Source: Ascidiella aspersa (lineage: Eukaryota). From it: DNA of 64,000 bases. Positions 8,171 through 42,967 of the stretch are shown one piece after another. The translations under genes and the position numbers were made by a program. How positions within the stretch are numbered: position 1 is the stretch's first letter; each line of letters starts with the position of its first letter. Below the pieces are notes generated by a model, which was not told the origin of the DNA, made no database searches, and saw nothing but the letters and a program-made list of their open reading frames with translations. The stretch covers positions 16,554,001 through 16,618,000 of the forward strand of contig OZ004608.1 of the NCBI GenBank assembly GCA_963924565.1, read 5' to 3'.

Positions 8171-9178
8171 ATGTTTTCAGCAACTTCCGTGAGTACTTTT
8201 ATCGGCAACGAAAATGAGACGGCTACAGACGAATTTTTTGGAATTAGCATCGGTGCATTGGCCACCAACAGCGTACTTTTGCTTATGTCTTTTTATATTA
8301 CGACTGCACTGGCGGTCTATGAGTATAAATGTATCCTAAAACCAAGTAAAAGTCCGCAAACGTCAAGCAGAAGTAGTCAACTACCTCACTGGTCGAGACG
8401 TTTATGCTTCATAGGATCTGTGACGCTACTGATCCGGATTATTTTAGAAGTGATAGAGAACAGGTTCGGAATGAATTCGGACGTCGTTTGTCGAGTCATC
8501 CGGCCAACCAAGTCGGTACTGCATTTTTTGTTGGTTTCCTGTGTTTATCTTGTGCTATGGTTGCGCCAGAGGATGTTCTATAGCACACCTGTCATGGAAT
8601 ATTTGACCAACAAGTTCGTGCGATTCTTCAGCGCTTCCCTCCCGGTTATAATCCTGCTCACAAACGGCATCACCGTTTTACTAGACGTTACGACAAGAAA
8701 ATACACAAGCTCGTATCGCGGTTGCGTGGTCGAGTGGAGCCTTATATGGAAGAAGCTACCAGGCATATTTCTCTTTGTGTCGGGGACTTTTTTCCAGGCC
8801 ATTCTCTTGGGACTGCTTATATACCCTTTGGTAAAGCACCGCGACGACTCCCATGCCGCGAACGTGAGAGGCAGAAGAAAAGAGACGGCGGTCGTGCGTC
8901 GGGTAACAGCGGCGGCCGTCGTAACCGTGCTAATCGATGGCGTGAGTGGTTTAATTTCAATCACTGTGCTCTCTGGGTCTCTGGGGGTACTAAGGGCAAT
9001 GTTGTACGACCTCAACATGATGGTGGCGCTTCTGTGCGTCGTACTCAGCTTTGCCGATTGGCGGAAGAGGCTGTTTCCTTTCCACACCGAGGCCGATTCA
9101 AAAAGAAAAAGAAAATCGTCTAGCATGTCCGCACAAAGCGGCGGAAGCGGCGTAGTGACCGATGGATCGCGTTTGTGA
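8171..9178 (+). CDS. Orphan 7TM receptor #2, intronless, 335 aa; head-to-head with #1
   Basis: Seven hydrophobic segments; motifs LWLRQRMFYSTPVMEYL, RGCVV, FQAILLGLLIYPL and FADWRKRLFP are shared with the other three genes. Confidence 0.92.
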   Translation: MFSATSVSTFIGNENETATDEFFGISIGALATNSVLLLMSFYITTALAVYEYKCILKPSKSPQTSSRSSQLPHWSRRLCFIGSVTLLIRIILEVIENRFGMNSDVVCRVIRPTKSVLHFLLVSCVYLVLWLRQRMFYSTPVMEYLTNKFVRFFSASLPVIILLTNGITVLLDVTTRKYTSSYRGCVVEWSLIWKKLPGIFLFVSGTFFQAILLGLLIYPLVKHRDDSHAANVRGRRKETAVVRRVTAAAVVTVLIDGVSGLISITVLSGSLGVLRAMLYDLNMMVALLCVVLSFADWRKRLFPFHTEADSKRKRKSSSMSAQSGGSGVVTDGSRL

Positions 9179-16690: not shown

Positions 16691-19196
16691 ATTCGACGCA
16701 ATTATTGTTTATTATTAAGTCCAGCGTTAAACGTAGGCTATATAAATTTATTGTGAAAGTGTAAGATGTTTTTCACCTATTTACGTAACTAAATTAAGGT
16801 GCATATTTGGCAATCCACTCATAGGGGTGCAATTTATTCACCCACAATACATGAGTGGAAAATATCCACCATATGCTATTCAACCTACACACTTTACAGT
16901 TTGTGGCCTTACCAGTTTCGAAATTTGGTACTGCCCATGAGCACGTCGGACTCGGGACTCAAGTAGGCCTACTTACTGAAGTCCTGAATCCCGAATCCGC
17001 ATTCAACAAAACAACCTACTCCGTCGAGTCCCGAGTCCCAACCCTATACTTTAATAAACAGTAGCCCACACAGCAATTGTACAACAGGTAGAACAAACAT
17101 AGCAAGAATATAAAAGCCCATCAATTTAAAAATATCGAAAAAGATATTTGAAATTTTCAAATGAGAATCCACAAGAATTCAAAATATCACTCGGCACCCT
17201 TGAGCGATAAAAACGACACCCAAGGGTGCCGTGGAACTCTAGTAAGCCTACATAAATGAACGAAATAGCCTTTATGTTTCTACGGTTTCACTTTTCAATC
17301 TGGCGGGCAGATCATTCCGCAAAACCTTTCGAACATTGATTTGTTGTTTTAGTTTTAGATTTCTACCAAGAGATTGGTAAGAAGCGGCAGGATACCATGT
17401 TGCAGTAAATTTTACCTTGCTTTTTTAAAATAAGTTAAATAGCAACCAAAAGACGTTTTACAAAAAACTTCTAAACCAGTGTTTTCCCAACCGGGGTTCC
17501 CTGGCAACTTTATGTGCCGTATCTAATGCTCCAGGTTGCCGATTGATATTTGGAAATCTTAAAGAATATAATTTTCGCTAAAGTAGTAATCCTCTTGATA
17601 CAATTCTTTGTGTAAGATAAGAATACAATAAATCAAGTGGTATTTTTCTACATTGTGTAAAGTCGATGTTTGTTGTTTCCGCAGCCTACCGTCTGTTGTA
17701 ACATTATGCTAAATTTGCAATCTATTTACTTTTTCTAAAGGGTTCCGCAAGCCATAAAAGGTACTGTACCAAGAAAAACAGTACCTTTCATGTACTGTAC
17801 CAAGAAAAACGTTGACCTAAATACGTGCCCCTTAGCATGATATTTATCAATACAGATTCAATAAGGAAGCAAAGCGTTATGCAGTTAGTCATGCCTAAAC
17901 GTGATGTCATCACAATAGAAAGCAACGGCAACCGACGCAAGAGTTATTCAAAATATTTCGAGGTGGTAGGATTTAGTAGTTACGAAACTTAGTAGTGCCA
18001 ATGACACATAGGGCCTATTAAGAATAACTACTTTTAATACTTAAAACTTCATAGGTAGCCTAATGCAAAGAGGCTATCAGTTTGAAATAGTAAGGTAGTC
18101 TGTAGGCCTACATATCTGTTTCAATAAACATTGGCTTAAAAAGTTATACATAGATTATCCTGAAGTTTTTTAACCTCGCTAAAAGTTAATGCTTATTATA
18201 ACAAAACATTTTAAACTGAAGAATAAATGTGATTTAAATATAGTCGGTCTAATGCTGGTGTATGTCATAAGTTCATTTGTAGCGTTGATTTAAATTTTAT
18301 TTAGGTAAAAACTATTGCTCGTACTTAGAGATAGTTATCTTAGTTAGGACTTATTTAAATATTTAACTAACTGCTGGATATCCTGCGCTTGGTAATCGGT
18401 AGTTCGAATAGAATACCTTTTTATATTGCCTCAGAAGTAAAATATATCAATATAAACTTATTGATAAAAGTTACAGAAGTAAAATATATGGAACACATTA
18501 AACACTTGTTTTATTAAAACTAATACTTGGACTTTTAGACCATTTTAATAGATAAGCCCATTGAGAAATGTTTACCCCGTCGAGGTCAATTTAAATTCAG
18601 ACAATCTTGATGTCTGTTGACGTGTTCCATACAGCAAAGCCATGGCAAAAGACGTTTAAGTTTTTTCGGCAATTTGTTGACGGAAAACGGCTAACTGGAA
18701 TGTAGGGAATAATGCAGCACGTCTAGGAAGCAGGTTACTAATAGTATAACAGTTGGGCCGCATAAAAATCAGTTGGCACATAACAATAGCAGTGGAAAGT
18801 TAGACAGCAAGTGGAATTAACTTTGTTAAATAGCCCAAAGCATTGACTATAAGGGGCGCCACACACACGTCGATGATTGCACGTAGGATCGAGGAAAGTA
18901 AAAAACATCTGGAGGTCCACGCATAGGCAAAACTAGTATGCTAATGTGATACAACTATAGTTACTAGAGCACTGGTGAAATTCACAAATTAACTATAAAT
19001 CCGCGTCTTGTCATAGATATTCGTGAGCCTTTGTAAAAACTTAGTTTCATTGTTTGGCACATAACTAAGCAAAAAGGATAAATAGGAAGTCATAAAGCTT
19101 ACGTAGCATTTGTACAAAAACGAAATCTGTTTTTTAAAACTACTTTTTTTAGGTGAACGTTTTATGAAAATTCGCAAAAGTGTTTTATATAGAGTT

Positions 19197-20273
19197 ATGA
19201 ACACTGTGGACTTTGAAGTTACCGCTAGAATGTTTCCGAACAACACGACATCTCAAGCTGAACTAACCTCAATCAAAAATACTACATCCTACGACGGGCA
19301 GTTGATTGGTGCTCTGGTGCTATGCACTGTGACGCTGATTGCCACCATCTATCTCACAACCGTGCTTGTGATTTACGAAGTGAAGGTCAGGCAGAAGAAC
19401 AGAGATAGTCTACCCCTGACCCGATCGCGTTGCCAATCCAGGTTGGTGAGAGACAAGTGGGCGGATTGGATGCGGCTGCTTTCTTTGATTGGATGTGCTA
19501 CCCTCCTGTGTCGCGTGCTCATTGAAACTGTCGAAATCCGCCACGGACAGGGCTCCGACGAGGTTTGCGCAATTATCCGGCCTGTGAAGGCGTTTCTACA
19601 GGCGACGGTGGTGACGTGCATCTACTTGGTGTTGTGGATACGACAGCGCAAGTTCTACAGCCTGCCTGTAATGGAACATCTTACCAACAAGTACATTCGC
19701 TTTCTCAGCAGCTCGATTGTCGTGATAATGGCCACGGCCGACGCCGTTACAGTTTGCCTTTACATCTTTACACGAAAGTACACGGATTCGGAACGTGGAT
19801 GTGTGGTCGATTATAGCCTCGTCTGGAAAAAACTTCCGGGACTGTTTATGTTTCTGTCCACTGTGCTGTTTCAGGCAATCTTGCTTGGGTTGCTGATTTA
19901 TCCACTTATCAACCACAGGCGCAGTATTCAAGTCCAGAGCACCGCACAGCGGCGCGAGATTGTGCTGATACGAAGAGTGACCGTCGCCGCACTTGTAACG
20001 GTCGCCATCGACGGTCTTTCCGGGTTAATTACGATCACGGTACTCTCTGGCTCCTTTGGTATCTGGCGACCGCTTCTCTACGACGTGGATATGTTCGCGG
20101 GACTGTTCTGTGTGAATCTAACGTTCAACGATTGGAAGATTCGATTTTGGCCCTGTTTTGCTGACAGCAAGGAAGTGAGAGGCACACTAAACCAAGTGTA
20201 TAGCAACATGGAAACAGAATTTACGAACACAGTTGATGGGACGACAACCACCGGGATGGATGGCGCCGCATAG
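19197..20273 (+). CDS. Orphan 7TM receptor #3, intronless, 358 aa from the MNTVD start (alternative in-frame ATG at 19164)
   Basis: 7TM pattern with LWIRQRKFYSLPVMEHL, RGCVV, FQAILLGLLIYPL and FNDWKIRFWP. The MNTVD ATG is conserved in paralog #4, whereas the 19164 ATG is ACG there. Confidence 0.9.
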   Translation: MNTVDFEVTARMFPNNTTSQAELTSIKNTTSYDGQLIGALVLCTVTLIATIYLTTVLVIYEVKVRQKNRDSLPLTRSRCQSRLVRDKWADWMRLLSLIGCATLLCRVLIETVEIRHGQGSDEVCAIIRPVKAFLQATVVTCIYLVLWIRQRKFYSLPVMEHLTNKYIRFLSSSIVVIMATADAVTVCLYIFTRKYTDSERGCVVDYSLVWKKLPGLFMFLSTVLFQAILLGLLIYPLINHRRSIQVQSTAQRREIVLIRRVTVAALVTVAIDGLSGLITITVLSGSFGIWRPLLYDVDMFAGLFCVNLTFNDWKIRFWPCFADSKEVRGTLNQVYSNMETEFTNTVDGTTTTGMDGAA

Positions 20274-22543: not shown

Positions 22544-25500
22544 CAGGGGCGGCCGCAGAAAATTTTCCAGGGGGGGGCAATCAGCGAAAATCAAAAAGGG
22601 GGGTCTTGAATTTTCAACTTAGGGAATTCCCCTATTTTTCGTCTGACTTAATGAATAATGAGTAATGACGTCATAAAACAGTGACAGTATGACGTCATAG
22701 AATGGTGATTGCAAGACGTGATAAAAAAAAACTAAACAGAAACAGCCAAATACGTCCAGCAAAAGCGACCACGTGTGTCGTAAACAATCCTGTCAGGCGC
22801 CAGCTGCGAAACACGATAACTTCAGGCAAAAAAAACAAACCAAGACCGTGAAATATCTGTGATTAATTGTGGTAAAATCACACATAATTCGACTATCAGC
22901 AGCGCATTTTGTTCCATGAACGGAACGAGCGCTAAAAAATTGTCTTTCACCATCTGCAATACTAAACGAAGATCGTTTTTTCCTGGTGTTATTATGCCAC
23001 GATTAGCGCAACAATTGCGCCGAGCTGTGTGCCAAGTCAGCTAAATTACAAGCCGCGGTTGAGGGAAAATAAGTTGTGTCCATTGCACACTTAGCACGTG
23101 GTGTAAGAGTATGCTTAAAGAGCATAATTTTGCGTTAAACATCATTACTTAAAAATGGAGACTTTGAAACGCGCACGACAGTCACCATTATACCTCCTTT
23201 TAAGAATCTGCTTCAGTTAAACAAATGAAACGGTGTTACACTAAGGAACATACTGCGTATAACTCGACGTTTTTTAACGAGAAAAAATAAAGAAGGTTTG
23301 ATTAGCGTTGTCAATTGTAGAATACACACTTGCTAATCAGTCAACCTACACAAATAACGAAAGAGAAAAATTCCAGCGTTTATGGTCGGCCAAACAAAAG
23401 ACGAAAAACGGCGTTTTGCACTCGATTTTGGTTTCGCATTAGATTAAGACGCGTGACCCAATTACTTTAAAAGCACGCCGCTTCAAACAGTTTGTTAAAC
23501 CATGACAAAAACGAACAAAAAACGATATTATCACTTACAAAAAGAGGGTAATAACTCCCACCCCCCTGGATACGCCACTGGGGGCAATGGATAATGTATA
23601 ATATTTTTAACCTTAATATACATATTACAAAAAAAAATCCTAACTGGCAACCCTGGCCGTGACTACCGAAGAAGCTGATTAATTCAAACAGCAACTGACG
23701 TAAAAATGAAGTAACTGAGAGATAAGGATATTCCCAATGAACTAAAAATAATTATCAATTAGCGAAGCATATAACGTGATCGATACAAGACAACAAAGAA
23801 TCAATAGGCTACTATAGGCTAGCTTCAAAAAAGAAGTTCTAGGAAACTATGCTACCAATACCACTATTGGCACTATTTTTGTGTCCCGCCAGCTGATGTG
23901 GATATTTTAATTGATAGCTAATTTACCCCTAATAGTGAGGAAATTTACCCCCAGGGGTAAATTTACCCCAGGTTAAGAAAGGCTGATTTAAGGTGTCTAT
24001 GGTTGTAGATGTACATGTAAACATTAACTCAGTATGTAGTCATTTTAAGAATCGTCATTGGTGCGGCGATTGTTTTCATTGTGCCAACAATAACTAACCT
24101 AAATATATTGATTACAATTACAGTGTGGCTTCGTACCGACACATATTTAATTGAAGATCCAGGCACAAACGTTTCGGTGAGATTTGTGCTATTTGTTGTT
24201 TGGTGTTATAAAATGTATATATAATGTGCCTATTCGTTGATTTTAGAAAACCACCCACGCCTACATGCTTGCTCGTCCAGCCAATTAAAGCATTCGAAGC
24301 GTGTCACCAATAATAAACTTTAGTTGGATACATTTTAAGTTTTGGGGGAGAGACCCGTGTAGGAGAGCGCGTTTTTGAATTGTTAAACCTGAAGTACCCG
24401 ATTGGGCGTCTGCGCAGGCCTGGACGCGGAAGTAGACGCTATAAATAGTGTGTATCTTGCAACTAAAGCACTTCATTTCCCCAGATCGTCCTTCCAGGTG
24501 TCAAATTACGGGCAAACATTTCTAGCAGTGTTGTAATGACTTAAGTCATTGACTTGACTTAAGTCCTTTGACCAAAATGACTTGACTTGACTTAAGTCTT
24601 TTGGCCAAATGACTTGACTTGGACTTAAGTCTTTTTGGCAAATAACTTGGGAGTAAATTAAGTGTTTTTCATTAAAATTTATCTCAAGTTTAGCGTATTA
24701 AACACTTTAATTGCTGCGTATTGCGTATGTGTTTTTTTAGTTAAATTGTTGCATATAATCGGACGAGTTTACCAATTTTAATAGTTTAATAATTTACTTT
24801 TATGTCAATGACATGACTGGAAATTGACTTGCTCTCATAATGACTTGACTGGGACTTGACTTGGGCAACCGATGACTTGGACTGGGACTTGACTTGTTAT
24901 TTTTGCAAAAGACTTGACTTGGACTTAAGTTATTTTTCAAATGACTTGACTTGGACTTAAGTCGTTTCAAAATGACTTGTTTACAACACTGATTTCTAGA
25001 CATTTGGGTTTGCCACTTGTTTTTACAAATCGTTCCAGTAAGGAATAAATAGGAGGTACGCGGAAATTTAAGTCTTGTGTTTTTGTAATCTATCTAACTA
25101 AACGCGTTGTGCGTACTTTGATTCAGACTTCCCTAACAAAAACCCAAAAACGTTTTAAATGTTTAAACGAATTTGGAATTTTAACACAAAATTATTTCGT
25201 TATATTTAACACAAAATTATTTCGTGATAAAAAAAACTAATCAGAAACAGCCAAATACGTCCAGCAAAAGCGACCACGTGTGCCGTAAACAATCCTGTCA
25301 GGCACCAGCTGCGAAACACGATAACTTCAGGCAAAAAAAACAAACCAAGACCGTGAAATATCTGTGATTAATTGTGGTAAAATCACACATAATTCGACTA
25401 TCAGCAGCGCATTTTTTTCCATGAACGGAACGAGCGCTAAAAAATTGTCTTTCACCACCTGCAATACTAAACGAAGATCGTTTTTTCCTGGTGTTATTAT

Positions 25501-26217
25501 GCCACGATTAGCGCAACAATTGCGCCGAGCTGTGTGCCAAGTCAGCTAAATTACAAGCCGCGGTTGAGGGAAAATAAGTTGTGTCCATTGCACACTTAGC
25601 ACGTGGTGTAAGAGTATGCTTAAAGAGCATAATTTTGCGTTAAACATCATTACTTAAAAATGGAGACTTTGAAACGCGCACGACAGTCACCATTATACCT
25701 CCTTTTAAGAATCTGCTTCAGTTAAACAAATGAAACGGTGTTACACTAAGGAACATACTGCGTATAACTCGACGTTTTTTAACGAGAAAAAATAAAGAAG
25801 GTTTGATTAGCGTTGTCAATTGTAGAATACACACTTGCTAATCAGTCAACCTACACAAATAACGAAAGAGAAAAATTCCAGCGTTTATGGTCGGCCAAAC
25901 AAAAGACGAAAAACGGCGTTTTGCACTCGATTTTGGTTTCGCATTAGATTAAGACGCGTGACCCAATTACTTTAAAAGCACGCCGCTTCAAACAGTTTGT
26001 TAAACCATGACAAAAACGAACAAAAAACGATATTATCACTTACAAAAAGAGGGTAATAACTCCCACCCCCCTGGATACGCCACTGGGGGCAATGGATAAT
26101 GTATAATATTTTTAACCTTAATATACATATTACACTTAAATATAATACTAATAATCGCATTTTGAAATTCCAGGGGGGGGCAAGTCTCCCCCCCCCCCCC
26201 CCTTGCGGGCGCCCATG
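22544..26217 (+). mobile_element. hAT-like non-autonomous element enlarged by an internal duplication of flanking DNA
   Basis: Termini CAGGGGCGGCCGCA / TGCGGGCGCCCATG; perfect 8-bp TSD CCAGTCGA (22536-22543, 26218-26225). Confidence 0.85.
24444..25057 (-). pseudogene. METTL4: Second copy of the METTL4 3'-end fragment with the same MITE (24526-24991)
   Basis: Duplicate of 20688-21301, including the ATTTCTAG TSD (24518-24525, 24992-24999). Confidence 0.85.
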
Positions 26218-27332: not shown

Positions 27333-27909
27333 ATTTAATCTTTAATGTTTCTGACAAAAACTTGTTTTTTCGTGGTGGAGTTACGTCACACTCCGACTAT
27401 GATATCAATTGAACTGTTAAGTACAATAAAAGGGCCAATCGCGAAGATTGGGTTTGGGCCCTGGGGGCAGTTCTATTCACTATAAATGAGTATAACTGAC
27501 CCTGGGGGTCCTAGCCAGATGTTGCCAAAAATTCCCCCAAAAGATCGACTTTTTGAAAGAATTTTTTTTTTTGCCATCTAATTTATCAGCTTTACCTATA
27601 TACCCTACCTAGACCTGCTCCTTCCTCTCACTCCCCTTTTCTCCCTTTAGCACCTTTGGTTGGCAAGCGGTGATTGAATTGGCCCACACCCTACAGTGCG
27701 GCACTACAGCTGTACAAACTTCTAAATATAGTCTGCTGCCCGACACTAACAGCAATCAGTACAGAAACTTGTTATTAACAAGCATCGAGCCAGCGACGAT
27801 CACCAAACATGATCAGGCTTTTACATTTGATTTAAAAAAGGAAATTTTTCATTCACTTTACCATTTTTAACAATGGAAGCCGGGAAATAAACTAAAGTTT
27901 ATTACTCCA

Positions 27910-30900
27910 TGTAATGATTTATGTTTCTATTGTTGACTCTGATTTCTATGCTATCTGCTTCTGTGCGTTTCTCCTTTCTTTTCCTTGCCTCTCTCCGTAA
28001 TTATCATTATACGTCCCGCGTCTTGTTACATTCTTCCCTTCCCTTTATAACTCGTGTAGCTTTACTGTGCTTCGTCAGTCTTTGTCAGTTTCTCTTATTG
28101 GGTACTCTTTTATATTCGTTACTAATAACGTTCTTTTTGTTACAGCACTCTATGTTGTAAATTGTTGATTAAAGCTATAGTAAACGAACTTGACGACGTT
28201 TATTGTTAGTTACTTCAATTTAATCAACAAAATTTTCCATGATGGAAAACCGACAACTTTTGCGGCCTAAAACTTTGACGATCGAGCCCGAAGCTCCTAA
28301 TGCTGCTCGACACTTCGCGTATTGGTTACGCTCCGTTAACGACTTTATCGACCATCTCGACGAAGGCGATAACACCACTTCCGCTGCAAACAGGAAGCGC
28401 TTCATAGTCAACTGTTTATCTCCGGATATATTCTCTTATGTAGAGGATGTTGACTCCTTCGAAGAAATCGTCAGTACATTAAAACAAATGTACGTGAAGA
28501 AGAAAAATAACGTATTCGCTCGCTATATACTTGTAAGTCGTCATCAAGGCCCCGACGAGACACTCGCGGAGTATTTGCGGGAACTTAAACTTTTAGCGAA
28601 GGATTGTACTTTTCTTCCAGTATCGGCTCATCAATACAAAGACGATCTTACCAGAGATGCGTTTATAAACGGTCTTTCGGCTCCGTTCATCCGTCAACGT
28701 CTCTTGGAAATAGAAGATCTTGATTTAACTAAGGCTTCTCAGCTTGCTGAAAGCCTGTCCAAAACGCAGCAGCAGTCTGTTTTGATGGGCAAGACAATTC
28801 CTTCTATGGCGTCTGTTCCCGCCTTTAAAGAGCTGGAAAGCGACGGGAATGGAAGTACCGCCACTTCTTCCGAGTCTATTTCTCTGGCAACGGCTGACAG
28901 AAGCTTAAAAGCCAAAGGTAACTTGTGCTATTTCTGCGGTGGTGGACAGCACAGCAGCCGCGCGACCTGTCCTGCCCGTAACGCTACTTGTTACCAATGT
29001 GGAAAAAAGGGACACTTTTCACGAGTCTGCCAGAGTCGTTCTTCGTATTCCTCCCGCCGGGTGAATTCACGACCCGCGTCTCCGACCGCCGTTGGTTCTT
29101 CCATGATTTCTGGTCATCTTCCGCCCTCGTTTCTGGCCGGTGCTCCTTCCTGTCTGGGTCCTGCGTTAGTCGATGCGACTTTACAATCCACTCCGGTCCA
29201 AGTTTTGATCGACTCCGGGGCTTCCGAAAACTTTGTCAACAAAAGGTTAGCCACCAAGCTTCGTCTGAAGACCTTCGGACCCCACTCCTCCGTTTCCATG
29301 GCCTCCTCCCGTCTCTCTATCGCTACTTCGGGAAGAACCACCGCTACCATAGCCCTACTAGGTCGATCATACATCCTAACCTTTGGTGTTTTAGATGACC
29401 TTTGTGCTGACGTTGTTCTCGGTCAGGACTTTCTGAAGAAACATGTCGAGGTTAGTTTCTTCCTGGGTGGACCGGAAGCACCCCTGAAAATTGGATTCAA
29501 TGATTTCTCCCACCTTTCTTTGGCCGTCGCTGACTTAAACCCCCCTCGCCTATTTGAGTTTTTGCTTCCAGGTTGTACTCCCATAGCTGCACGCTCTCGT
29601 CGATATAGTAAAGAAGACTGGAATTTTATCAATGATGAGATCCGGCGTCTCTTGGAGTCTGATATTATAGAACCTGCTCGTTCTCCTTGGAGAGCTCCTG
29701 TACTAGTGGTCTCTCGTGGTAACAAGAAGAGACTGGTTGTCGACTACTCTCTCACCATAAACCGATTCACCCAGTTGGACGCCTATCCATTGCCGAAAAT
29801 TGAGGAAATAGTAAACAAGGTCGCTCAAGATAAGTTCTTTAGTTCGCTCGACCTGCGTTCCGCTTATCATCAAGTTCCGTTGTTACCTGGGGAGCGACAC
29901 TACACGGCTTTTGAGGCTGGCGGAAAACTGTATCAATACAAACGCCTGCCGTTCGGCGTCACTAATGGGGTCGCCGCGTTTCAGCGCGCTATTGACGAGT
30001 TTATTGAAGCTAATAAGCTGAAAAAGGTCTATGCCTATCTCGACGACATAACTGTAACGGGTTCGACTTTGGAGGAACATGACAGCAACCTTCGAGCTCT
30101 ACTTCAAGCTGCTGCTCGGCAGAATCTCACTCTTAATGAAGAGAAGTCAATGATTCGCCGTACTTCTTTAGATTTCCTGGGATACCGGATTAGTCAAAAC
30201 AAAATACAGCCGGATCCTCAACGTCTACAGCCTCTTCTCGAGCTCTCGCCACCCACGTCACCCAAAGCCTTGAAACGCGTCTTGGGGATGTTCTCCTACT
30301 ACGCTAAGTGGATCAAGGACTTTTCTCGTCGCGTACAGCCGTTGCTCACTGCAAATCGTTTTCCTCTGAATGAGACGGCCGTCCGTTCCTTCCGTGATTT
30401 AAAGACTGAGCTCGAAAGGATAACTCTTGGGGCTGTTCGCGACGGCGTTCCCTTCGAGGTGGAAACCGATGCTTCCGACTTCGCTATTGCTGCAGTTTTA
30501 TCCCAGAACGGGCGCCCTGTAGCTTTTATGTCACGTACTCTTAGCAAGTATGAGCGGAACTATCCTGCTATTGAGAAGGAAGCGACCGCCATTGTCGAAG
30601 CAGTCCGCAAGTGGGCTCACTTCCTAAAGGGCCGTAGTTTTACTCTCATCACCGATCAAAAGTCTGTGTCCTATATGTTCGACCGAACCAATCGAGGTAA
30701 AATTAAAAACGCCAAGATCACTTCGTGGAGGCTAGAGTTGGGTCAATATTCTTACGATATCCGTCATCGCCCTGGTGTTCAAAACGTGGTCCCCGACGCT
30801 CTATCACGGGTATGTGCTTTCACAGGTTCTACGCGAAATCTTGAGGAGTTGCATAAAGCGATGGGACATCCGGGATACGCCCGTATGTATCACTTCATAA

Positions 30901-32202
30901 AAAGTAAGAACCTACCGTTCACTCCCGAGGAAACCAAAGCCGTCGGGCGGAACTGTCGCTCTTGCGCCGAACTAAAACCACGTTTCTACAGACCGGAACC
31001 TCGGGATCTGGTAAAAGCAACGAGATCGTGGGAGCGACTGAGCATAGACTTCAAGGGTCCTGTACAGGGACCGAATCCGTACCTTCTAGTGCTAGTTGAT
31101 GAGTATAGTCGATATCCGTTTGTTTTTCCTTGCAGAGACATGACGTCCCGCTCCGTCATCGAGTGTCTCTCCGTCCTCTTCTGTTTATTTGGTTTTCCCG
31201 AATATATTCACAGTGATCGTGGGACCTCTTTTATCAGCAAAGAAACTCGTCAGTTTCTTACTACTCGGGGCATTGCAACGAGTAAATCGACACCCTATCA
31301 TCCACAAGGTAATGGTCAGTGCGAAAAGACAAACCAAACGGTTTGGAGAACTATTAAACTTCTCCTTCACAGTCGTGGTCTGTCAGGCAACCGCTGGGAG
31401 GAAGTGTTGCCAGAGGCTCTTCACGCTATTCGTTCGCTTCTCTGATTCCTCCGTTTCCCGAGACGAGCTTTAACCGGAACCGCTATGCCTTCGTGGCTAC
31501 TTAATCGAGGTGTTGTTCTTTTACGTAGGTTTGTTCGAACCAAGGGAGAGCCCCTGTGTGATCCTGTCACATTGCTCGACGCGAATCCATCCTACGCCCA
31601 TGTTCGGTTTTCTGATGGGCGCGAAAGTACAGTCTCTACATCCGACCTCGCTCCGTGTCCTGGTTCTCCTGAGTCGCTCCATGACGCTTTTCCCCCTCGC
31701 GACGCCGAAACCTCTCGGACCTCTGAAGGCGAGGCACCGGTACCGGTTGAAGATGAACCGACCTCTGAACCCGCCCCATCTCCTGGAGACGAAGTACCTC
31801 TCCCCGACATCCGACGATCGGGTCGTGAACGTCGGGCTCCTGTCCGCTACGGAGACTGGACTGTCTGAAGGGTCTTTTATCTAGAAGGGATGAATGTAAT
31901 GATTTATGTTTCTATTGTTGACTCTGATTTCTATGCTATCTGCTTCTGTGCGTTTCTCCTTTCTTTTCCTTGCCTCTCTCCGTAATTATCATTATACGTC
32001 CCGCGTCTTGTTACATTCTTCCCTTCCCTTTATAACTCGTGTAGCTTTACTGTGCTTCGTCAGTCTTTGTCAGTTTCTCTTATTGGGTACTCTTTTATAT
32101 TCGTTACTAATAACGTTCTTTTTGTTACAGCACTCTATGTTGTAAATTGTTGATTAAAGCTATAGTAAACGAACTTGACGACGTTTATTGTTAGTTACTT
32201 CA
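27910..32202 (+). mobile_element. Ty3/Gypsy LTR retrotransposon (Mag-like gag), full length, very young
   Basis: 308-bp TG...CA LTRs at 27910-28217 and 31895-32202 that appear identical; 5-bp TSD CTCCA; PPT AGAAGGGATGAA (31883-31894); PR-RT-RH-IN domain order. Confidence 0.97.
28239..31445 (+). CDS. Gag-Pol polyprotein in a single ORF; integrase truncated by an in-frame TGA, with the same frame continuing to 31868
   Basis: Zn knuckles CYFCGGGQH...C and CYQCGKKGHFSRVC; protease LIDSGAS; RT LPFG and YLDD; RNase H ETDAS; integrase HHCC and IDF...SDRG...E. Confidence 0.95.
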   Translation: MMENRQLLRPKTLTIEPEAPNAARHFAYWLRSVNDFIDHLDEGDNTTSAANRKRFIVNCLSPDIFSYVEDVDSFEEIVSTLKQMYVKKKNNVFARYILVSRHQGPDETLAEYLRELKLLAKDCTFLPVSAHQYKDDLTRDAFINGLSAPFIRQRLLEIEDLDLTKASQLAESLSKTQQQSVLMGKTIPSMASVPAFKELESDGNGSTATSSESISLATADRSLKAKGNLCYFCGGGQHSSRATCPARNATCYQCGKKGHFSRVCQSRSSYSSRRVNSRPASPTAVGSSMISGHLPPSFLAGAPSCLGPALVDATLQSTPVQVLIDSGASENFVNKRLATKLRLKTFGPHSSVSMASSRLSIATSGRTTATIALLGRSYILTFGVLDDLCADVVLGQDFLKKHVEVSFFLGGPEAPLKIGFNDFSHLSLAVADLNPPRLFEFLLPGCTPIAARSRRYSKEDWNFINDEIRRLLESDIIEPARSPWRAPVLVVSRGNKKRLVVDYSLTINRFTQLDAYPLPKIEEIVNKVAQDKFFSSLDLRSAYHQVPLLPGERHYTAFEAGGKLYQYKRLPFGVTNGVAAFQRAIDEFIEANKLKKVYAYLDDITVTGSTLEEHDSNLRALLQAAARQNLTLNEEKSMIRRTSLDFLGYRISQNKIQPDPQRLQPLLELSPPTSPKALKRVLGMFSYYAKWIKDFSRRVQPLLTANRFPLNETAVRSFRDLKTELERITLGAVRDGVPFEVETDASDFAIAAVLSQNGRPVAFMSRTLSKYERNYPAIEKEATAIVEAVRKWAHFLKGRSFTLITDQKSVSYMFDRTNRGKIKNAKITSWRLELGQYSYDIRHRPGVQNVVPDALSRVCAFTGSTRNLEELHKAMGHPGYARMYHFIKSKNLPFTPEETKAVGRNCRSCAELKPRFYRPEPRDLVKATRSWERLSIDFKGPVQGPNPYLLVLVDEYSRYPFVFPCRDMTSRSVIECLSVLFCLFGFPEYIHSDRGTSFISKETRQFLTTRGIATSKSTPYHPQGNGQCEKTNQTVWRTIKLLLHSRGLSGNRWEEVLPEALHAIRSLL

Positions 32203-35200
32203 CTCCATTTCAAGATTATAAAAACCACTAGATTCTCCAAGAAAATCACTAAACCACTAGATTATTTCAAAAACCACTAAATCTAGTGGAAAACCACTAG
32301 GAGTGGCAGCCCTGGCCCCTGATGTATTTTGATTTTTGAAATCGTAATGGTACGAAACAACAGGGTTAGTTACGTAACAATGAATAGGCTTCAAATTGGC
32401 AAAAAATATAAATAATGGCCTCGTGCCCAGTTTGTTTTGATGATTTGCGTTGGGGGTTCGGATCTGGCCTTCGGGCCGTAAGTTACCCACCCCTGATTTA
32501 ACCGGTCAAATACTCATATTGGAAGCAAATGTTGTAAATTTTATCAGGCTTGTTTTGTGATTTGAGTTAAAATCAAAATAATGACTTCAACACACAATGC
32601 TGCATACTTATACCAATATCTAGTATCATTGCTTATACTTGAGATTTTTAAGCTGTGATGAGGAGTTAAAACATTTGTTTTTTGCTTATACATTTACTTG
32701 CTGTTAAATTTCGTTAAAAACTTGTTGGCTTAACTTTGTGGTTGAATAGTACTACGGTATAAATGAATATAATATTGCTTGTAAGATGGACATAGTTTGC
32801 AATGATTCCTATTGATGGTCAAAAAATAAATGTTTTCTGTTTGACAACCATGTTACTTAAGCTAAGATTAAGGTTACCACCAAGGTTTATTTTTAATTTG
32901 AAATGCATTTTGTTAGTGTCTAGTATTTGACCTATTTGACGAGTATTTGACCGGTCAATTGACTGGATTTTATTTGACTGGTCTAATGCCCAAGCCCGAC
33001 CCTGTGAAAAACCATTGCTTACCATTAGTGGTACGCGTACCACAGGTTGTGAACCCCTGCTGTAGTGCGACGGCCCCGGTAAGGCCGAATGTCTTGAGTC
33101 GAGCCTCATCGCAGGCTATGTTGTTTACCTGGCCTGGCCTTGCTTGTACAAAATCCTAAATTAATCAACTGATTTCGGTTATCCCTTTAGAAGGCTTCCG
33201 GTTAACTATAATGTTGTCTTATATTAGAAATTGTTGCGGCAAAACAACCCCAGATTTTCATTGAATCAAGATTGTAATATATTTCCATAACTAAACATTT
33301 GTTGTTTTCAAAGGTCGGTCCGCGATAAACGAAACATTTTTAACTTTAGATCATCGTCGACAAATTTATGGCCATCTATAGGTAACGGAAAACAGTTCAG
33401 AAGCTTGGCGGATCTTAGATTTTTGTTCGGGGACCATACATTTTTAGGAATGTTACAAAAGCTACGTCAAAAAACAAAAGTCTTTTAAAACACCAGTTGT
33501 CATCTGGCAAACTTGTGCGCAAAAAAATATGCAGCTGAAAACTAATCTAATGTCAAACAAAGCGCGAAAAAAAATGCGTTTATTTGGTTTGAATGACTGT
33601 GCTTGTAACCTTCTTTAACAGCCATTGCATTTCGTCGACTTTATGATCTTTGAGCTGAATAAATTTGCTTTAACACGAACAAATACACAAAAAAAGACAG
33701 AAGTTAAAAATATAGGTAAAACCTGTGTAAGATCCAAGATATAAAGGTAAACCACCATAAGTATCAAATAAATTGCAGATATTTGAAAAAAAATATGCAT
33801 AGACTTGTGAAGTAGACAAAGTTATACATTGTTGCGGATTGCCAAAATTGAAATGCATTATACACAGGGACGTGCAGTCAGGAGAGGCAGGTGAGGCAGT
33901 GCCAACATCTGGCAAAGCAAAAGATATATCAAGCAAAAGTTATATCAGTTAATCTCTACCGCAAATTTTACGATTCTATACCTAAAGCGTGCTTTATTTT
34001 TTTTCTTCTATTTTGTTGCGTTATCCGTAGCAAGCGTTCACGCGGTCAAAATCACTGAAATACGAGAAGAGAGGCAGCGCCAAACCGTGCCTCTCTTCAG
34101 GTCACAGAATGCCATACACTGCATTATGCGTGCCTTTTTCTTTCTCCAATTCTCTCGGAAAAACATGATGAACGATTTAGCTATGATTTGAGGCATGCCT
34201 CAACCTCAATTATGACGTCCACTCTATGAAACCTTTCTTTGTGCAGCTTAAATGCCGGCATAGTGCGTGTACATTGACTTCTCGTAGTGTAAAGCTCTAG
34301 AGTTGAAGTCATAAATAAAAGCAGACCTATTGCACATTTAAAAGTTTTGCATCAGACGACTGGACAAAAAAATAACACGCAACTCTCTTGGTAAAAAAAA
34401 GAGATTGGTAAAAAAGGAGTGGATGCTGTGTGGCTGTTACAGGCGTAGCCAGGGTGGCCATGGCCACCCCAAAATGTTATAAATAGTGTACTCTTAATAA
34501 TAATTTGTTTTGTAGCTTTTATGAGCAGTACCACAACAGTCCATCACAGGCGTGCCACGCCATCAAATGTCATGCACTGTTACGTCATAAAAGATGTAGT
34601 CATTATTACGTTTGCTATATTAATGTGGTTTTACTACTGTACTTTTTGGTGATTTTGTTATTGCTCTCTGGATATTTTTTGAGTATTGCGCTAAAACTCA
34701 GTCAGTTGCTGCTCGAAACAGTTTGCCAGCATATTTATTTGTGTTCGATACGCAGTTTATACAATGGCAAAAGCTAAACAAAAAGAGTTCAAACTTTCTT
34801 TTTATTTTTATTCTTACTATACCGTTTTTTTCATTTTCAACATATTCGAAACGTTCAAAATGCTACCTACTTCTTTCGGCTTTGATATTCTTATTACGTC
34901 TTACTACAACCTCCAGCACTTATGCTCCAAGGTAGAGCAGAAAGATATTCTTGATTTGTTACACTCCAATCGAAAAAATATATTGTAACAAGAAGCTCAC
35001 CAATAAAAATGGAAATCTCAAGATTTTGAAATATCTCTCGGCACCCTTGAATAGCCAAGAAAATGTTGGTCTGAATACGTGCCCTTTAGCATGGTATTTA
35101 TAAATACAGATTCAATAAGCAAGCAAAGCGTTATGCAGTTAGTCATGCCTAAACGTGATGTCATCACAATAGAAAGCAACGGCAACCGACGCAAGAGTTA

Positions 35201-36530: not shown

Positions 36531-36795
36531 CCTTACGTGATGCATTGCATAGACAAAACTATAGTAAGCTAATGCGATACAACTATAGAGCACCGGTGAA
36601 ACTCACAAACTAACTATAAATCCGCGTCTTGTCATTTATTTGGGCGAGCTTTTCTAAAAATTTATTGTTATTTTTTGTCACACAACTAAGCAAAAAGTTT
36701 ACGCAGCATTTGTACATAAACGAGAGGTGGTTTTAAAACTATTTTTTTTAGGTGAACGTTTTACGGAAATTCCCAAAAGTGTTTTAAATAGACCA

Positions 36796-37872
36796 ATGAA
36801 CACTGTGGACATGGACGTTACCGCTAGAATGTTTTCAAACAACACGTCATCTCAAGCTGAACTAACCTCAATCAACAATACTACATCCTACGACGGGCAG
36901 TTGATTGGTGCTCTGGTGCTATGCACTGTGACGTTGATTGCCACCATCCATCTCACAGCCGTGCTTGTGATTTACGAAGTGAAGGTCAGGCAGAAGAACA
37001 GAGATAGTCTACGCCTGACCCGATCGCGTTGCCAATCCAGGTTGGTGAGAGACAAGTGGGCGGATTGGATGCGGCTGCTTTCTTTGATCGGATGTGCTAC
37101 CCTCCTGTGTCGCGTGCTTCTTGAAACCGTCGAAATCCGCCACGGACAGGGCTCCGACGAGGTTTGCGCAATTATCCGGCCTGTGAAGGCGTTTCTGCAG
37201 GCGACGGTGGTGACGTGCATCTACTTGGTGTTGTGGATACGACAGCGAAAGTTCTACAGCCTGCCTGTAATGGAACATCTCACCAACAAGTACATTCGCT
37301 TTCTCAGCAGCTCGATTGTCGCGATAATGGCCACGGCCGACGCCCTTACCGTTTGCCTTTACATCTTTACTCGAAAGTACACGGATTCGGAACGTGGTTG
37401 TGTGGTAGATTATAGCCTCGTCTGGAAAAAACTTCCGGGTCTGTTTCTGTTCCTGTCCACTGTGCTGTTTCAGGCAATCCTGCTTGGGTTGCTGATTTAT
37501 CCACTCATAAAGCACAGGCGCGGTATTCAAGTCCAGAGCACCGCACAACGGCACGAAATTGTGCTGATACGAAGGGTGACCGTCGCCGCACTTGTAACGG
37601 TCGCCATCGACGGTCTTTCCGGGTTAATTGCGATCACGGTACTCTCTGGCTCCTTTGGTATCTGGCGACCGCTTCTCTACGACGTGGATATGTTCGCGGG
37701 ACTGTTCTGTGTGAATCTAACATTCAATGATTGGAGGATTCGATTTTGCCCCTGTTTTGCTGACAGCAAGGAAGTGAGAGGCACACTAAAACGAGTGTAT
37801 AGCAACATGGAAACAGAATTTACGAACACAGTTGATGGGACGACAACCACCGGCATGGATGGCGCCGCATAG
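36796..37872 (+). CDS. Orphan 7TM receptor #4, intronless, 358 aa; paralog of #3
   Basis: Same length as #3, with ~20 aa differences by manual count (~94% identity). Confidence 0.9.
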   Translation: MNTVDMDVTARMFSNNTSSQAELTSINNTTSYDGQLIGALVLCTVTLIATIHLTAVLVIYEVKVRQKNRDSLRLTRSRCQSRLVRDKWADWMRLLSLIGCATLLCRVLLETVEIRHGQGSDEVCAIIRPVKAFLQATVVTCIYLVLWIRQRKFYSLPVMEHLTNKYIRFLSSSIVAIMATADALTVCLYIFTRKYTDSERGCVVDYSLVWKKLPGLFLFLSTVLFQAILLGLLIYPLIKHRRGIQVQSTAQRHEIVLIRRVTVAALVTVAIDGLSGLIAITVLSGSFGIWRPLLYDVDMFAGLFCVNLTFNDWRIRFCPCFADSKEVRGTLKRVYSNMETEFTNTVDGTTTTGMDGAA

Positions 37873-38730: not shown

Positions 38731-39873
38731 TCAAAGCTCGTGGTAATAGTGTGTATCTTGCAACTTCAGCACTTCATTTCCCCAACTTGTCCATCCAGGT
38801 GTCAAATTACGGGCAAACATTTCTAGACATCTGGGTTTGCCACTTGTTATTACAAATCGTTCCAATAAGGAATGAATAGGAGGTTTATGTGAGTGTATTT
38901 TGCAAGGAACACTGCAAACTACGTAGTTTGGAAAAAGCTCTGTATTTGGATTTTTTCTATTACCATCTTTTAGACAAAATCTCCCAATGACCAAACTTTC
39001 ATATGGCTTTTTATGCAAACTGTCAAATGGATAGATTGGAGTACCACTTTTAGTTACTTTCACCCAAAACCATTTAGCAATGTACTGCACATTCCAAAAC
39101 GGAAAGAGCTCATTTGTGACAAAATTTAATATCTTTTGCTTATTAGTTATCCAAATTGCAACAAGACATCCATTTTCAGCTAAGCTTCTGATTGGCAAAT
39201 GCTTTATATCATAGAAACTTAGGTAGTCATATTTTGCACCTCTTTTAACTGATTTGTTTTTCCATGGCGGATCCATTAGAATACAGTTGTATTTAACCTT
39301 CTGACAGTCTTTTATTAAAACCTTAATATCAGAAACATCACAATTCAAAAACCTACAACTCTTTGGCATCAAAATTTGTTTTTCTTTCTGTAAAACTCTG
39401 ACAGGAAACTCATTTTTGTTTTCCATAAAATGCAAAGCGTCTTGAGAAAAATCAAGTTGTAAAGCTGATTTCACTCCTTGCAGAGGATAAGTTTCCCCAG
39501 TTAAGTCTGTTACAACTCCACAGCAGACCTGTCTTGCAAAATATTCTTTAACCAATCCACATAGCACTTCTGCAGAAGACTGAATTGATTCCCTTATGTG
39601 TTCATAATATTGTTGAGAAACTAGTTCTTCAGCTGAAAATGGATATTTGCGTTTTCTTATTCGCCTCTTTTTGACATTTACAATACTTGTGTTATTTGTT
39701 TGATTTTTTTGCCTTTGTTCAATGTATGGCTTCTTTAAATTGAACAAACTCTTTTCAAAACAAAATGATTTAGTTGATTCTCCATTTAATGAAACTGTTT
39801 TATTGTACACTATTTCAAAATAGTGCTCATGATCAATAAAAACTCCTTCAGTATGTTCAATTAAAAAGTTCAT
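38731..39873 (-). CDS. METTL4: MT-A70 family N6-adenine methyltransferase METTL4, intronless CDS, 380 aa
   Basis: ILMDPPWKNKSVKR catalytic motif; WITN, WFWVKVT, HKKPYE, SVPCKIHSHKPP and CLEMFARNL.PGWTSWGNEVLKLQ; AATAAA ~20 nt after the stop. Confidence 0.95.
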   Translation of the reverse strand: MNFLIEHTEGVFIDHEHYFEIVYNKTVSLNGESTKSFCFEKSLFNLKKPYIEQRQKNQTNNTSIVNVKKRRIRKRKYPFSAEELVSQQYYEHIRESIQSSAEVLCGLVKEYFARQVCCGVVTDLTGETYPLQGVKSALQLDFSQDALHFMENKNEFPVRVLQKEKQILMPKSCRFLNCDVSDIKVLIKDCQKVKYNCILMDPPWKNKSVKRGAKYDYLSFYDIKHLPIRSLAENGCLVAIWITNKQKILNFVTNELFPFWNVQYIAKWFWVKVTKSGTPIYPFDSLHKKPYESLVIGRFCLKDGNRKNPNTELFPNYVVCSVPCKIHSHKPPIHSLLERFVITSGKPRCLEMFARNLTPGWTSWGNEVLKLQDTHYYHEL

Positions 39874-40295
39874 TTTAAAATTTAATTCTAAAAAAATTTT
39901 TGAAGCTTTAGTTAAAAAACTCTTGTTATTGTATGGGTTACATCACCATAGAAACTCTATATATCCAAAGGTTAATCAACTAAATAGTTAGTTATATCAA
40001 AATGAGAAACAACATCAGCAATTTTAACACAGATGAAAGTTGCTTTACAATATATCTACAAATACTATATTTAGTAACAGCAATAAGTGAAGTTTGTCAG
40101 CATTAATTTGTTGGGTCAAAACTCACCAACCATTTGCTATATTCGCTTTGCTGCAAAATATTTGCTTAGCCCTGAGTTATTTGTACTGTAACGAAACAAG
40201 TTGACAAAAACAAAATTGCAAGAAAAAAATAAATATGGGTGAATAAATATGATAACAACACTTGACCCAGCAGGGCCCAAACTCACACCCTAACC

Positions 40296-41029: not shown

Positions 41030-42967
41030 AGGGGTTGGTAGCCGAGGTCGCATATACGGGCGTTTATGTCGCATATACGGGCGGTTGTTGGTCGCATATA
41101 CGGGCGGAGATGTCGCATATACGGGCGTTCGCATAATGTCGCATATACGGGCGAATTTCTCTACCGAACATACTGTGTGGTGTAAGGCATCGGAATGGCG
41201 TTCTATCAGATTTTAGTAGGCCATTATGAAGTGTTTGTGTTGCCTGACAGTTATGACGTCATATCATGTCTTCATCGTAACGTCACTCTCATCAAGTTCT
41301 GTAGTAAATAGCTCATATTTGGCTAGGTCGCATATACGGGCGTTCGCATAATGTCGCATATACGGGCGAATTTCTTTACTGAACATACTGTGTGGTTTAA
41401 GGCTTCAAAACGGCGTTCGAATAAATTTTAGTTGGCCATTATAAAATGTTTGTGTTGCCTGACAGTTATGACGTCATATCATGTCTTTATCGTGATGTCA
41501 CACGAATCTAGTGGTGTAGTAAATTACCCATATATTTGGCTAGGTCGCATATACGGGCGTTCGCATAATGTCGCATATACGGGCGAATTTCTCTACCGAA
41601 CATACTGTGTGGTGTAAGGCGTCGGAATGGCGTTCTATCAGATTTTAGTAGGCCATTATGAAGTGTTTGTGTTGCCTGACAGTTATGACGTCATATCATG
41701 TCTTCATCCTAACGTCACACTCATCAAGTGCTGTAGTAAATAGCTCATATTAGGCTAGGTCGCATATACGGGCGTTCGCATAATGTCGCATATACGGGCG
41801 AATTTCTCTACCGAACATACTGTGTGGTGTAAGGCGTCAAAACGGCGTTCGAATAATTTTTTTAACTTAAAATTAAATAAATTAATTTTTTATGTTCCTA
41901 ATCCTTCTTGTCACTTCAGTCGCGGTCCTCAGTAGAAACACTGTGTTTAATGAAAAAATCTAGTTTGATATATACTACGCCTGTTATTTATTTTTCATTT
42001 ACTTCTGTCTGTTGTTTTAAACATACAAATAGCCTCCCGCAAGTGAGTATACTATTATTATTGCAATATCGTTGCGTTCTTTTTTGGATTTCGCGGTATT
42101 TTATTTTACGTTTTACAGTATTTGTTTAGTAATTGTTTTCTTTAAATAAAAGATTATACGATTTTGCTGCCAAATTTTGGATTGGCTCGCTGTATATCGA
42201 AATTTACCATGGAGACAAAGCCATATTTTATGACGGTCAGCTAACCGACAAGAAATCAAGCAAAATTGTGAAATACATTACCAGAACAAAAATCGAATGT
42301 ATGATTTAACAAAATAACCTTATATAAACCGTTTGCTAATTTATAGTCTTATTTTATAGTTTTGTTTATATTTTTTATTTATCCAATACAAATGTATTTT
42401 GAGTGTGTTAATTGGCAGCTGCTGTATTTTGTTAGCAAGAATCGTTAGGACCGTCAGTATTACAGTATGGTAATTTACTACACCACTAGATTAGTGTGAC
42501 GTCACGATGAAAACATGATATGACGTTATAACTGTCAGGCAACACAAACATTTTATAATGGTCAACTAAAATTCATTCGAACGCCGTTTTGACGCCTTAA
42601 ACCACACAGTATGTTCAGTAGAGAAATTCGCCCGTATATGCGACATTATGCGAACGCCCGTATATGCGACCTAGCCAAATATGAGCTATTTACTACAGCA
42701 CTTGATGAGTGTGACGTCACGATGAAGACATGATATGACGTCATAACTGTCAGGCAACACAAACACTTCATAATGGCCTACTAAAATCTGATAGAACGCC
42801 ATTCCGACGCCTTACACCACACAGTAGGTTCGATAGAGAAATTCGCCCGTATATGCGACATTATGCGAACGCCCGTATATGCGACATCTCCGCCCGTATA
42901 TGCGACCTACAAGCGCCCGTATATGCGACATAAACGCCCGTATATGCGACCTCGGCTACCAACCCTG
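41030..42967. mobile_element. Foldback-type element with long inverted arms built of ~216-bp tandem units and GTCGCATATACGGGCG subrepeats
   Basis: Left arm ~41030-41860 has unit starts at 41112, 41327, 41544 and 41759. It is inverted relative to the right arm ~42470-42967, around an AT-rich spacer of ~600 bp. Termini GGGTTGGTAGCC/GGCTACCAACCC. Confidence 0.85.

Follow-up and report, generated by a model that had tools for sequence, protein, structure and literature searches.

A Ty3/Gypsy retrotransposon of Ascidiella aspersa whose primer-binding site is complementary to its own long terminal repeat: probable self-priming in an animal clade outside the Tf1/sushi group

The window analyzed here, a 64,000-nucleotide stretch of Ascidiella aspersa contig OZ004608.1 (assembly GCA_963924565.1, positions 16,554,001 to 16,618,000), carries a Ty3/Gypsy retrotransposon of 4293 bp on its plus strand, at 27910-32202. 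A repeat alignment of 27909-28217 against 31894-32202 is 100% identical, and trimming the base common to the end of the target site duplication (TSD) leaves two long terminal repeats (LTRs) of 308 bp each, at 27910-28217 and 31895-32202, bounded by TG..CA and flanked by the 5-bp TSD CTCCA (27905-27909 and 32203-32207). Because the two LTRs are identical, the insertion appears to be recent. A single gag-pol frame runs from the ATG at 28239 to a stop at 31443-31445, with the domain order gag with two zinc knuckles, protease, reverse transcriptase (RT) with a YLDD motif, RNase H (RH), and integrase (IN) core. The two knuckles, at 28926-29030, were read from the translation, the Pfam zf-CCHC match being sub-threshold. 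The early stop falls within the integrase, at a place where a sibling exceeds the window copy in length by 30 nt; the remaining integrase frame continues at 31446-31868 and has no chromodomain, and longer open frames are present in other copies of the family. A purine-rich tract at 31883-31894, ahead of the 3' LTR, is the putative plus-strand primer site. The best PDB match is Ty3 RT/RNase H (E 8e-52), and membership of Ty3/Gypsy follows from the TG..CA LTRs, the TSD, the gag-protease-RT-RH-IN order, and an RT closest to that of Ty3. The genome holds at least 10 near-identical copies.

The unusual part of the element is the junction of its 5' LTR with the internal region. No TGG directly follows the 5' LTR. 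Past a one-base spacer (28218), which is constant across the clade described below and mostly A, lies a primer-binding site (PBS) at 28219-28230 that is the exact 12-nt reverse complement of LTR bases 28162-28173, the match ending on both sides. This complement, reported in the first-pass annotation, stood up to randomization: none of 20,000 shuffled LTRs contained the 12-mer (expected, 7e-5). The LTR partner, 28162-28173, is the predicted self-primer, and its last six bases, ATTAAA (28168-28173), form a hexamer of the poly(A)-signal type; by analogy with Tf1, a cut is predicted at 28173/28174. A hairpin (28174-28210; arms 28174-28186 and 28197-28210) is predicted to open at the first base past the primer. 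It is the enclosed second stem, with G-U pairs and one bulge, that the same annotation had described, and it is contained in the minimum free energy structure. Its 3' arm is GU/U-rich and resembles a downstream poly(A) element. The fold of 28162-28240 has a free energy of -19.1 kcal/mol and z=-4.1, a score that is optimistic since the region was chosen for its hairpin, and the inner stem alone is weak (z=-1.3). The 12-bp helix retains a pair probability of 0.96 with 90 nt of upstream sequence added. The gag ATG lies 21 nt past the LTR, as previously noted. The longest complement to the PBS was 7 nt among 164 ARAGORN sequences, with 18 labels, which came from the fetched loci and thus represent part of the tRNA set; no Rfam match was found at 27800-28400.

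The complementarity is maintained among copies within the genome. In the own-family set, made up of the junction-bearing loci L001-L016, the 12 copies with undamaged junctions (L001-L011 and L013) pair at 12/12 positions in three sequence states, whereas part of the LTR arm is missing from L014-L016. In L008, which is 99% identical to the window copy, both partners of one pair have changed, and its 3' LTR bears the same variant as its pairing arm; in L011 and L013 both partners of another pair have changed. A sister family, L030 (74%), pairs at 11 positions. A second family, with 61% RT identity and an LTR of 133 bp, shows the one-base offset again, with a 12-mer of unrelated sequence, and 10 of its 11 copies pair at all 12 positions. 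Two of these copies show a C-G to A-T compensation, for which there is no possible G-U intermediate, and in three the paired run is lengthened to 16-17 nt, the changes just behind the PBS matching the LTR upstream of the primer. Other Gypsy elements of the genome served as controls. An LTR pair was present in 28 of 31 such loci, and in all 28 the self-complement was 7 nt or shorter; a TGG site was read in 25 of the 28, and three boundaries are unclear. A further Gypsy family, represented by 7 loci, has a TGG site and a self-complement of 4 nt.

Three further observations were made on these loci. The primer site is broken in L012, by an inversion after the first PBS bases, and in L016 and L018, where a deletion reaches from the PBS into gag; the end of the PBS is a possible hot spot of rearrangement. 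In the L013 LTR (G000 C2:18.84 Mb), the T-rich tract that precedes the acceptor-like site discussed below is interrupted by an insertion of pure poly(A), which has a ~17-bp target duplication and resembles a very short LINE-mediated insertion. L181-L184 are Gypsy families with a TGG primer site and the integrase ahead of the RT (order checked in L181 and L182), a domain order that we take to be Gmr1-type.

Relatives outside the genome were drawn from 80 metagenome loci (the best 80 of 443) and 10 genome-collection loci; of these 90, 39 were usable, having a gag start and at least 100 nt upstream of it. With the site anchored on CA plus one base, 11-12 of 12 positions are paired in 30 of the 39, compared to 1 in 780 shuffles, and the one-base offset agrees with the LTR end set independently by the 3' LTR in 15 loci. 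Removing 14 loci (near-duplicates, and L101, L127, L128, and L155, which lack a clear site) and adding the two families of the present genome gave a set of 27 families. At positions 4-12, pairing with the family's own LTR averages 8.67/9, versus 5.21/9 with the LTRs of other families, a difference reached in none of 10,000 permutations, and there are 23 distinct PBS 12-mers among the 27 families. Measured in 26 families, own pairing stays above the cross-family level through position 16 and equals it from position 17. In alignment A3, with 14 families, all 168 of 168 cells are paired and both partners vary in 8 of the 12 pairs (0/500 shuffles), and slid controls give 20-49%; the A3 families were hand-picked as clear cases, and kinship and selection both inflate its figure. 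Covariation of the two 12-mers across related families had been suggested as a check in the first-pass annotation, and the pairing is indeed kept with different letters. The 10 genome-collection members of the clade, L251-L260, lie in contigs of bacterial metagenome-assembled genomes, where they are probably host contamination. Scans of viral contigs found no relative of the clade.

The primer region has a common anatomy in these 27 families. The primer ends in ATTAAA in 13 and in AATAAA in 3, with close A-rich variants in most others, and the bases that follow are mostly GCCT or ACCT. A stem of at least 4 bp starting from the first base past the primer is found in 22 of the 27 (shuffle mean 8.8, maximum 16), and the inner region overall is not unusually stable (mean z -0.64). 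The paired runs end at 11-19 nt, mostly 12-18. The earlier description of the structure as Tf1-like thus holds for the LTR-PBS pairing and not for the two duplexes beside the PBS that make up the Tf1 pretzel, which are not enriched (3' of the PBS, 116 versus a null of 124; 5' of the PBS, 103 versus 99). A cap-templated C after the paired run is likewise unsupported, the base there being C in 6 of 21 and T in 10.

Among the matches listed, there are homologues at 54-74% over RT-RH from Ciona, Trichuris, Armadillidium, Caligus, lepidopterans, a leafhopper, and an ant. These hosts, which span tunicates, nematodes, crustaceans, and insects, are known by proteins; the primer site itself was seen in the present genome and in the metagenome and genome-collection contigs of the relatives. 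No precomputed chromodomain was present among the 120 homologues listed, and the Pfam chromodomain PF00385, found in reference rows L249, L250, and P0198, was absent from the two frames of the window, a full-length sibling, and five relatives, in agreement with the initial remark that no chromodomain was visible. Four chromodomain matches elsewhere in the genome were followed up (three were fetched) and are Polinton-like rather than chromoviruses. The three loci L231-L233 (G000 C7:11.22 Mb, C2:7.09 Mb, and C3:3.18 Mb) are Polinton/Maverick-like, with an integrase that bears a chromodomain and an adjoining packaging-ATPase-like frame.

Unrooted trees were calculated for RT-RH (39 of 82 extracted rows) and RT-RH-IN (38 rows), with chromodomain-bearing elements from a protein search and from viral contigs as references; the trees contain no row named as Tf1, sushi, Mag, or Cigr-1. 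In both trees the clade has 100/100 support on a long stem, and the chromoviruses form a separate group without it (99/97 for RT-RH and 100/100 for RT-RH-IN). Grouping of the clade with four fungal/fish-type chromovirus rows was rejected on RT-RH-IN by the approximately unbiased test (p=0.00012), and again (p=0.00014) after blanking three integrase parts that came from another element copy; on RT-RH alone it was not rejected (p=0.069). The four Tf1/sushi-like test rows (one fish, two fungi, and one viral contig) are not Tf1 or sushi themselves. A position of the clade as sister to all chromoviruses was not rejected (p=0.106 and 0.229); the stem of the clade measures 1.2. We conclude that the element lies outside the Tf1/sushi group, and an ancient common origin of self-priming is possible. 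The nearest named row is a Ciona intestinalis polyprotein (P0123, 1216 aa; 71% over 526 RT-RH-IN columns), joined to the clade at 100/100. Four loci of the genome that we take to be Mag-type from their kind of PBS form their own 100/98 group beside, not around, the clade, which lacks their tRNA PBS. The first-pass label "Mag-like" fits only the double knuckles of the gag; in the RT-RH-IN tree, the clade is on a long branch of its own, away from these loci.

From the pairing, its register, and its covariation, all of which are observed, we infer a transcript start, a cut, a priming step, and a use of the poly(A) signal, and put at about 80% the probability that the RNA starts 11-17 nt before 28173, pairs by its 5' end with the PBS, is cut by RT/RNase H at 28173/28174, and yields a strong-stop DNA of ~45 nt. 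In this scheme, transcription would begin at or just upstream of 28162. The 5' end of the RNA would pair with 28219-28230, as the covariation indicates, and the hairpin predicted from 28174 would stack on that helix. On the model of Tf1, the element's own RT/RNase H would then cleave at 28173/28174, and the RT would extend the new 3'-OH through the single spacer base and U5. The element may use as its poly(A) signal the hexamer at the 3' end of the primer, which would be hidden within the helix near the 5' terminus of the RNA and exposed in the 3' LTR, where cleavage ~15-30 nt past it would leave a short R overlap for strand transfer. That own pairing falls to the level between families at position 17 speaks indirectly for a start 11-17 nt ahead of the cut. 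The initial proposal of tRNA-independent self-priming in a non-chromovirus lineage, with a start at ~28162, is supported in part, the comparisons favoring priming by an LTR-derived stretch of RNA in a lineage outside Tf1/sushi; the priming itself and the start are predictions from sequence.

The copy patterns within the genome are consistent with such a cycle. Plus-strand synthesis in LTR elements regenerates the PBS from the primer, and the within-genome patterns match those expected of a self-primer whose 5' end varies slightly. In the present element, this step would write LTR changes into the PBS, which would account for both the two-sided compensations in near-identical copies and the variable run length. 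In Tf1, the primer is copied into the cDNA ends (PMC11042837).

Several points weigh against this scheme. Covariation demonstrates pairing or templating and not that the RNA acts as a primer, and the family-1 compensations (L008, and L011 with L013) can be explained by selection alone through a G-U route. In the second family, L209 has two mismatches. Nine of the 39 outside relatives miss the pairing threshold; four of them score 10, one scores 8 with a changed PBS, and L091 is included through a misplaced anchor, pairing 12/13 by eye. In three of the 39, no such primer site was found. As for the start, the base at 28162 is T, and the families together show no sharp peak of pyrimidine-purine starts. 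The RNA data come from one raw run (X7), of which ~6% was scanned; 27800-28700 received 48 reads and 28218-32300 received 174, mostly with the first mate on minus, and these shallow reads show neither a start pile-up in the LTR nor a splice joint. Upstream, a TATA-like and Inr-like (initiator-like) pair at 28044-28080 is a candidate start, with TATAA at 28046 and A at 28077 in the textbook -31 spacing suggesting initiation at 28077. A branch-point-like sequence, pyrimidine tract, and CAG at 28120-28145 make a candidate splice acceptor 28 nt upstream of the primer end, and an acceptor-like YAG at 26-29 nt upstream of the primer end occurs in 6 of 26 families (that of the window, L096, L102, L116, L159, and L252) against 0.54 expected, an enrichment whose p-value is too small, the families being related. 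With a start at 28077 or splicing at 28145, the 5' end of the RNA would lie well upstream of the 12-mer.

These last features are the substance of a rival explanation in which the RNA has a long 5' leader, starting at ~28077 or acquired by trans-splicing at 28145, and the primer is an internal cut product, so that the 12-mer is not made up of the first bases of the RNA. Besides the spacing of the TATA, which is kept in the sister family L074, and the enrichment of the acceptor-like site, this explanation can call on the lack of any donor upstream in the LTR (none above 2 bits precedes the acceptor in the window LTR) and on the nearest named relative, which comes from Ciona; spliced-leader (SL) trans-splicing is common in the group to which Ciona belongs. 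The acceptor-like site could have a part in trans-splicing, in the definition of a terminal exon, or in the making of a spliced gag RNA. We nevertheless consider a long leader unlikely, since pairing drops to the cross-family level at position 17 as if copied primers end there, the TATA is at no fixed distance across the clade, an acceptor at that distance is absent in 20 of 26 families, and no SL-like loose ends are seen at 28146 in the shallow RNA data. For a gag RNA spliced to the acceptor of the 3' LTR, donor-like sites recur at ~+320 and +1050-1100, but on Gly-Glu/Gly-Lys-type codons and, in the window, at a different place; contigs ending at 32132 sit one base off the acceptor. Priming across a splice junction, of the kind noted for BEL elements, is not needed to form the 12-mer, which is contiguous in the DNA, and no donor above that level lies upstream of the acceptor.

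In another explanation, the sole role of the helix is to mask the poly(A) signal in the 5' LTR, and priming falls to a protein or to some RNA of the host, such as a tRNA fragment. A hairpin that masks a 5' poly(A) signal is known in retroviruses, most families have a poly(A)-type hexamer at the end of the left arm, and the tRNA comparison covered part of the host set. Yet hiding a signal needs no particular register, and the right arm is always one base past the LTR end, in the position of a primer. The 23 different PBS 12-mers track their own LTRs, beyond any host RNA set, and their difference from family to family also argues against half-tRNA priming of the copia, Osser, or Bianca type. Given also the best complement of 7 nt among the 164 tRNA-like sequences of the genome and the templated-looking extensions at positions 14-18 of family 2, we regard occlusion without self-priming as highly improbable.

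A further alternative keeps the element as its own primer and assigns that role to the other LTR, the 3'-LTR 12-mer pairing with the PBS in a circularized RNA and the cut 3' end of the genomic RNA serving as primer. The 3' R has the same 12-mer and the start of the hairpin, and the two copies are indistinguishable by sequence. Copying would in this case have no natural stop, yet the paired runs end at 11-19 nt, and cleavage would take away the stretch at the 3' end to which the DNA made first corresponds; we regard this alternative as highly improbable. Chance complementarity in AT-rich DNA, or a local inverted duplication, has in its favor that both arms are AT-rich, and we count it as refuted by the 0/20,000 shuffles, the covariation, and the absence of the trait from other Gypsy families of the genome.

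Returning to self-priming from the 5' end, a broader proposal can be offered tentatively, as rather less than an even bet. A widespread invertebrate Gypsy clade would have evolved tRNA-free priming independently of Tf1/sushi, the 3' end of the primer being formed by the element's poly(A) signal. A single helix would both silence premature polyadenylation in the 5' LTR and set the cut that makes the primer, and each round of replication would rewrite the primer site according to the 5' end that the RNA happened to have, the run length in genomic copies recording heterogeneity of the start.

Elsewhere in the window there are similar, mostly intronless frames with multiple membrane spans at 4786-6327 (minus strand), 8171-9178 (plus), 19107-20273 (plus), and 36658-37872 (plus); the cluster looks like orphan 7TM (seven-transmembrane) receptors, and the three frames scanned had no Pfam match. 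An uninterrupted 403-aa frame at 38731-39942 (minus strand) has an MT-A70 methyltransferase domain (E 1e-39) with a DPPW motif. We take it to be METTL4-like, and it is either an intronless gene or a retrocopy. Tandem and dispersed repeats at 24542-24967, 41112-41843, and 22724-25528 consist, respectively, of a ~33-nt unit, a ~216-nt unit, and a 98% identical duplication 2.5 kb apart.

Among described lineages, Cigr-1 (of Simmen and Bird, 2000) is reportedly ~4.2 kb long; its LTRs are described as short, its single frame as having ~1210 codons, and its gag as echinoderm/Mag-like. The present element fits this description, and its clade may be that of Cigr-1. Cigr-1 is listed as a clade of its own, molluscs included, in PMC6238403. 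The Kuafuorterviruses (Troyka), like the present clade, are a deep-branching animal LTR lineage; their RT carries IADD, VADD, or LADD (PMC11673190) and, according to a Repbase title cited there, Troyka has a TSD of 3 bp. The YLDD motif and 5-bp TSD of our element rule out membership of that group.

If the clade lies outside Tf1/sushi, self-priming would be a recurrent solution rather than a one-off, which bears on the order in which hairpin and tRNA priming arose, a question raised in PMC3601003. Elements of this kind would be independent of the tRNAs supplied by the host and would offer no PBS of the sort targeted by 3'-tRNA fragments (PMC7472051), and annotation tools that demand a tRNA PBS would overlook them. 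A poly(A) signal at the cut together with a single hairpin would constitute a second natural substrate for RT/RNase H cutting of an RNA:RNA duplex.

Self-priming has been established for Tf1/Tf2 of Schizosaccharomyces pombe and the Tf1/sushi group (PMC7175516, PMC10085805, PMC11042837, and PMC5341516). The element shares with Tf1 the lack of a tRNA PBS, a PBS beside the LTR end that complements an LTR stretch tens of bases upstream, a duplex adjoining the predicted cut site, a single gag-pol frame, and a 5-bp TSD. Unlike the Tf1/sushi elements, it has neither a chromodomain nor an SH3 domain of the Tf2 type. Its clade has paired runs of mostly 12-18 nt, compared to 11 in Tf1, and its primer, unlike that of Tf1, ends in a poly(A)-type hexamer, with a one-base spacer after the CA; it has a local hairpin where the Tf1 pretzel has two duplexes adjacent to the PBS (PMC10085805). 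Priming has been measured in Tf1 and is predicted for our element. In plants, self-priming has been predicted for Tcn1 (Gypsy) and TAR (Copia: Houba and Osr-1) from at least 10 bp of LTR-PBS complementarity 0-5 bp from the LTR end (PMC6317226), and the element agrees with that description. With TAR, the trait had already been proposed outside the chromoviruses; unlike Tcn1, a chromovirus, and TAR, a Copia lineage, both in plants, the clade described here is a non-chromovirus Gypsy clade of animals in which the two partners covary. No report of self-priming in such a clade was found in the literature searched; Repbase Reports, GyDB, supplements, the original Levin and Cigr-1 papers, and Butler 2001 lay outside that search and may mention the trait. 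Within those bounds, to self-priming known from Tf1/sushi and predicted in plant Tcn1 and TAR, the present clade would add an animal lineage with a differing architecture.

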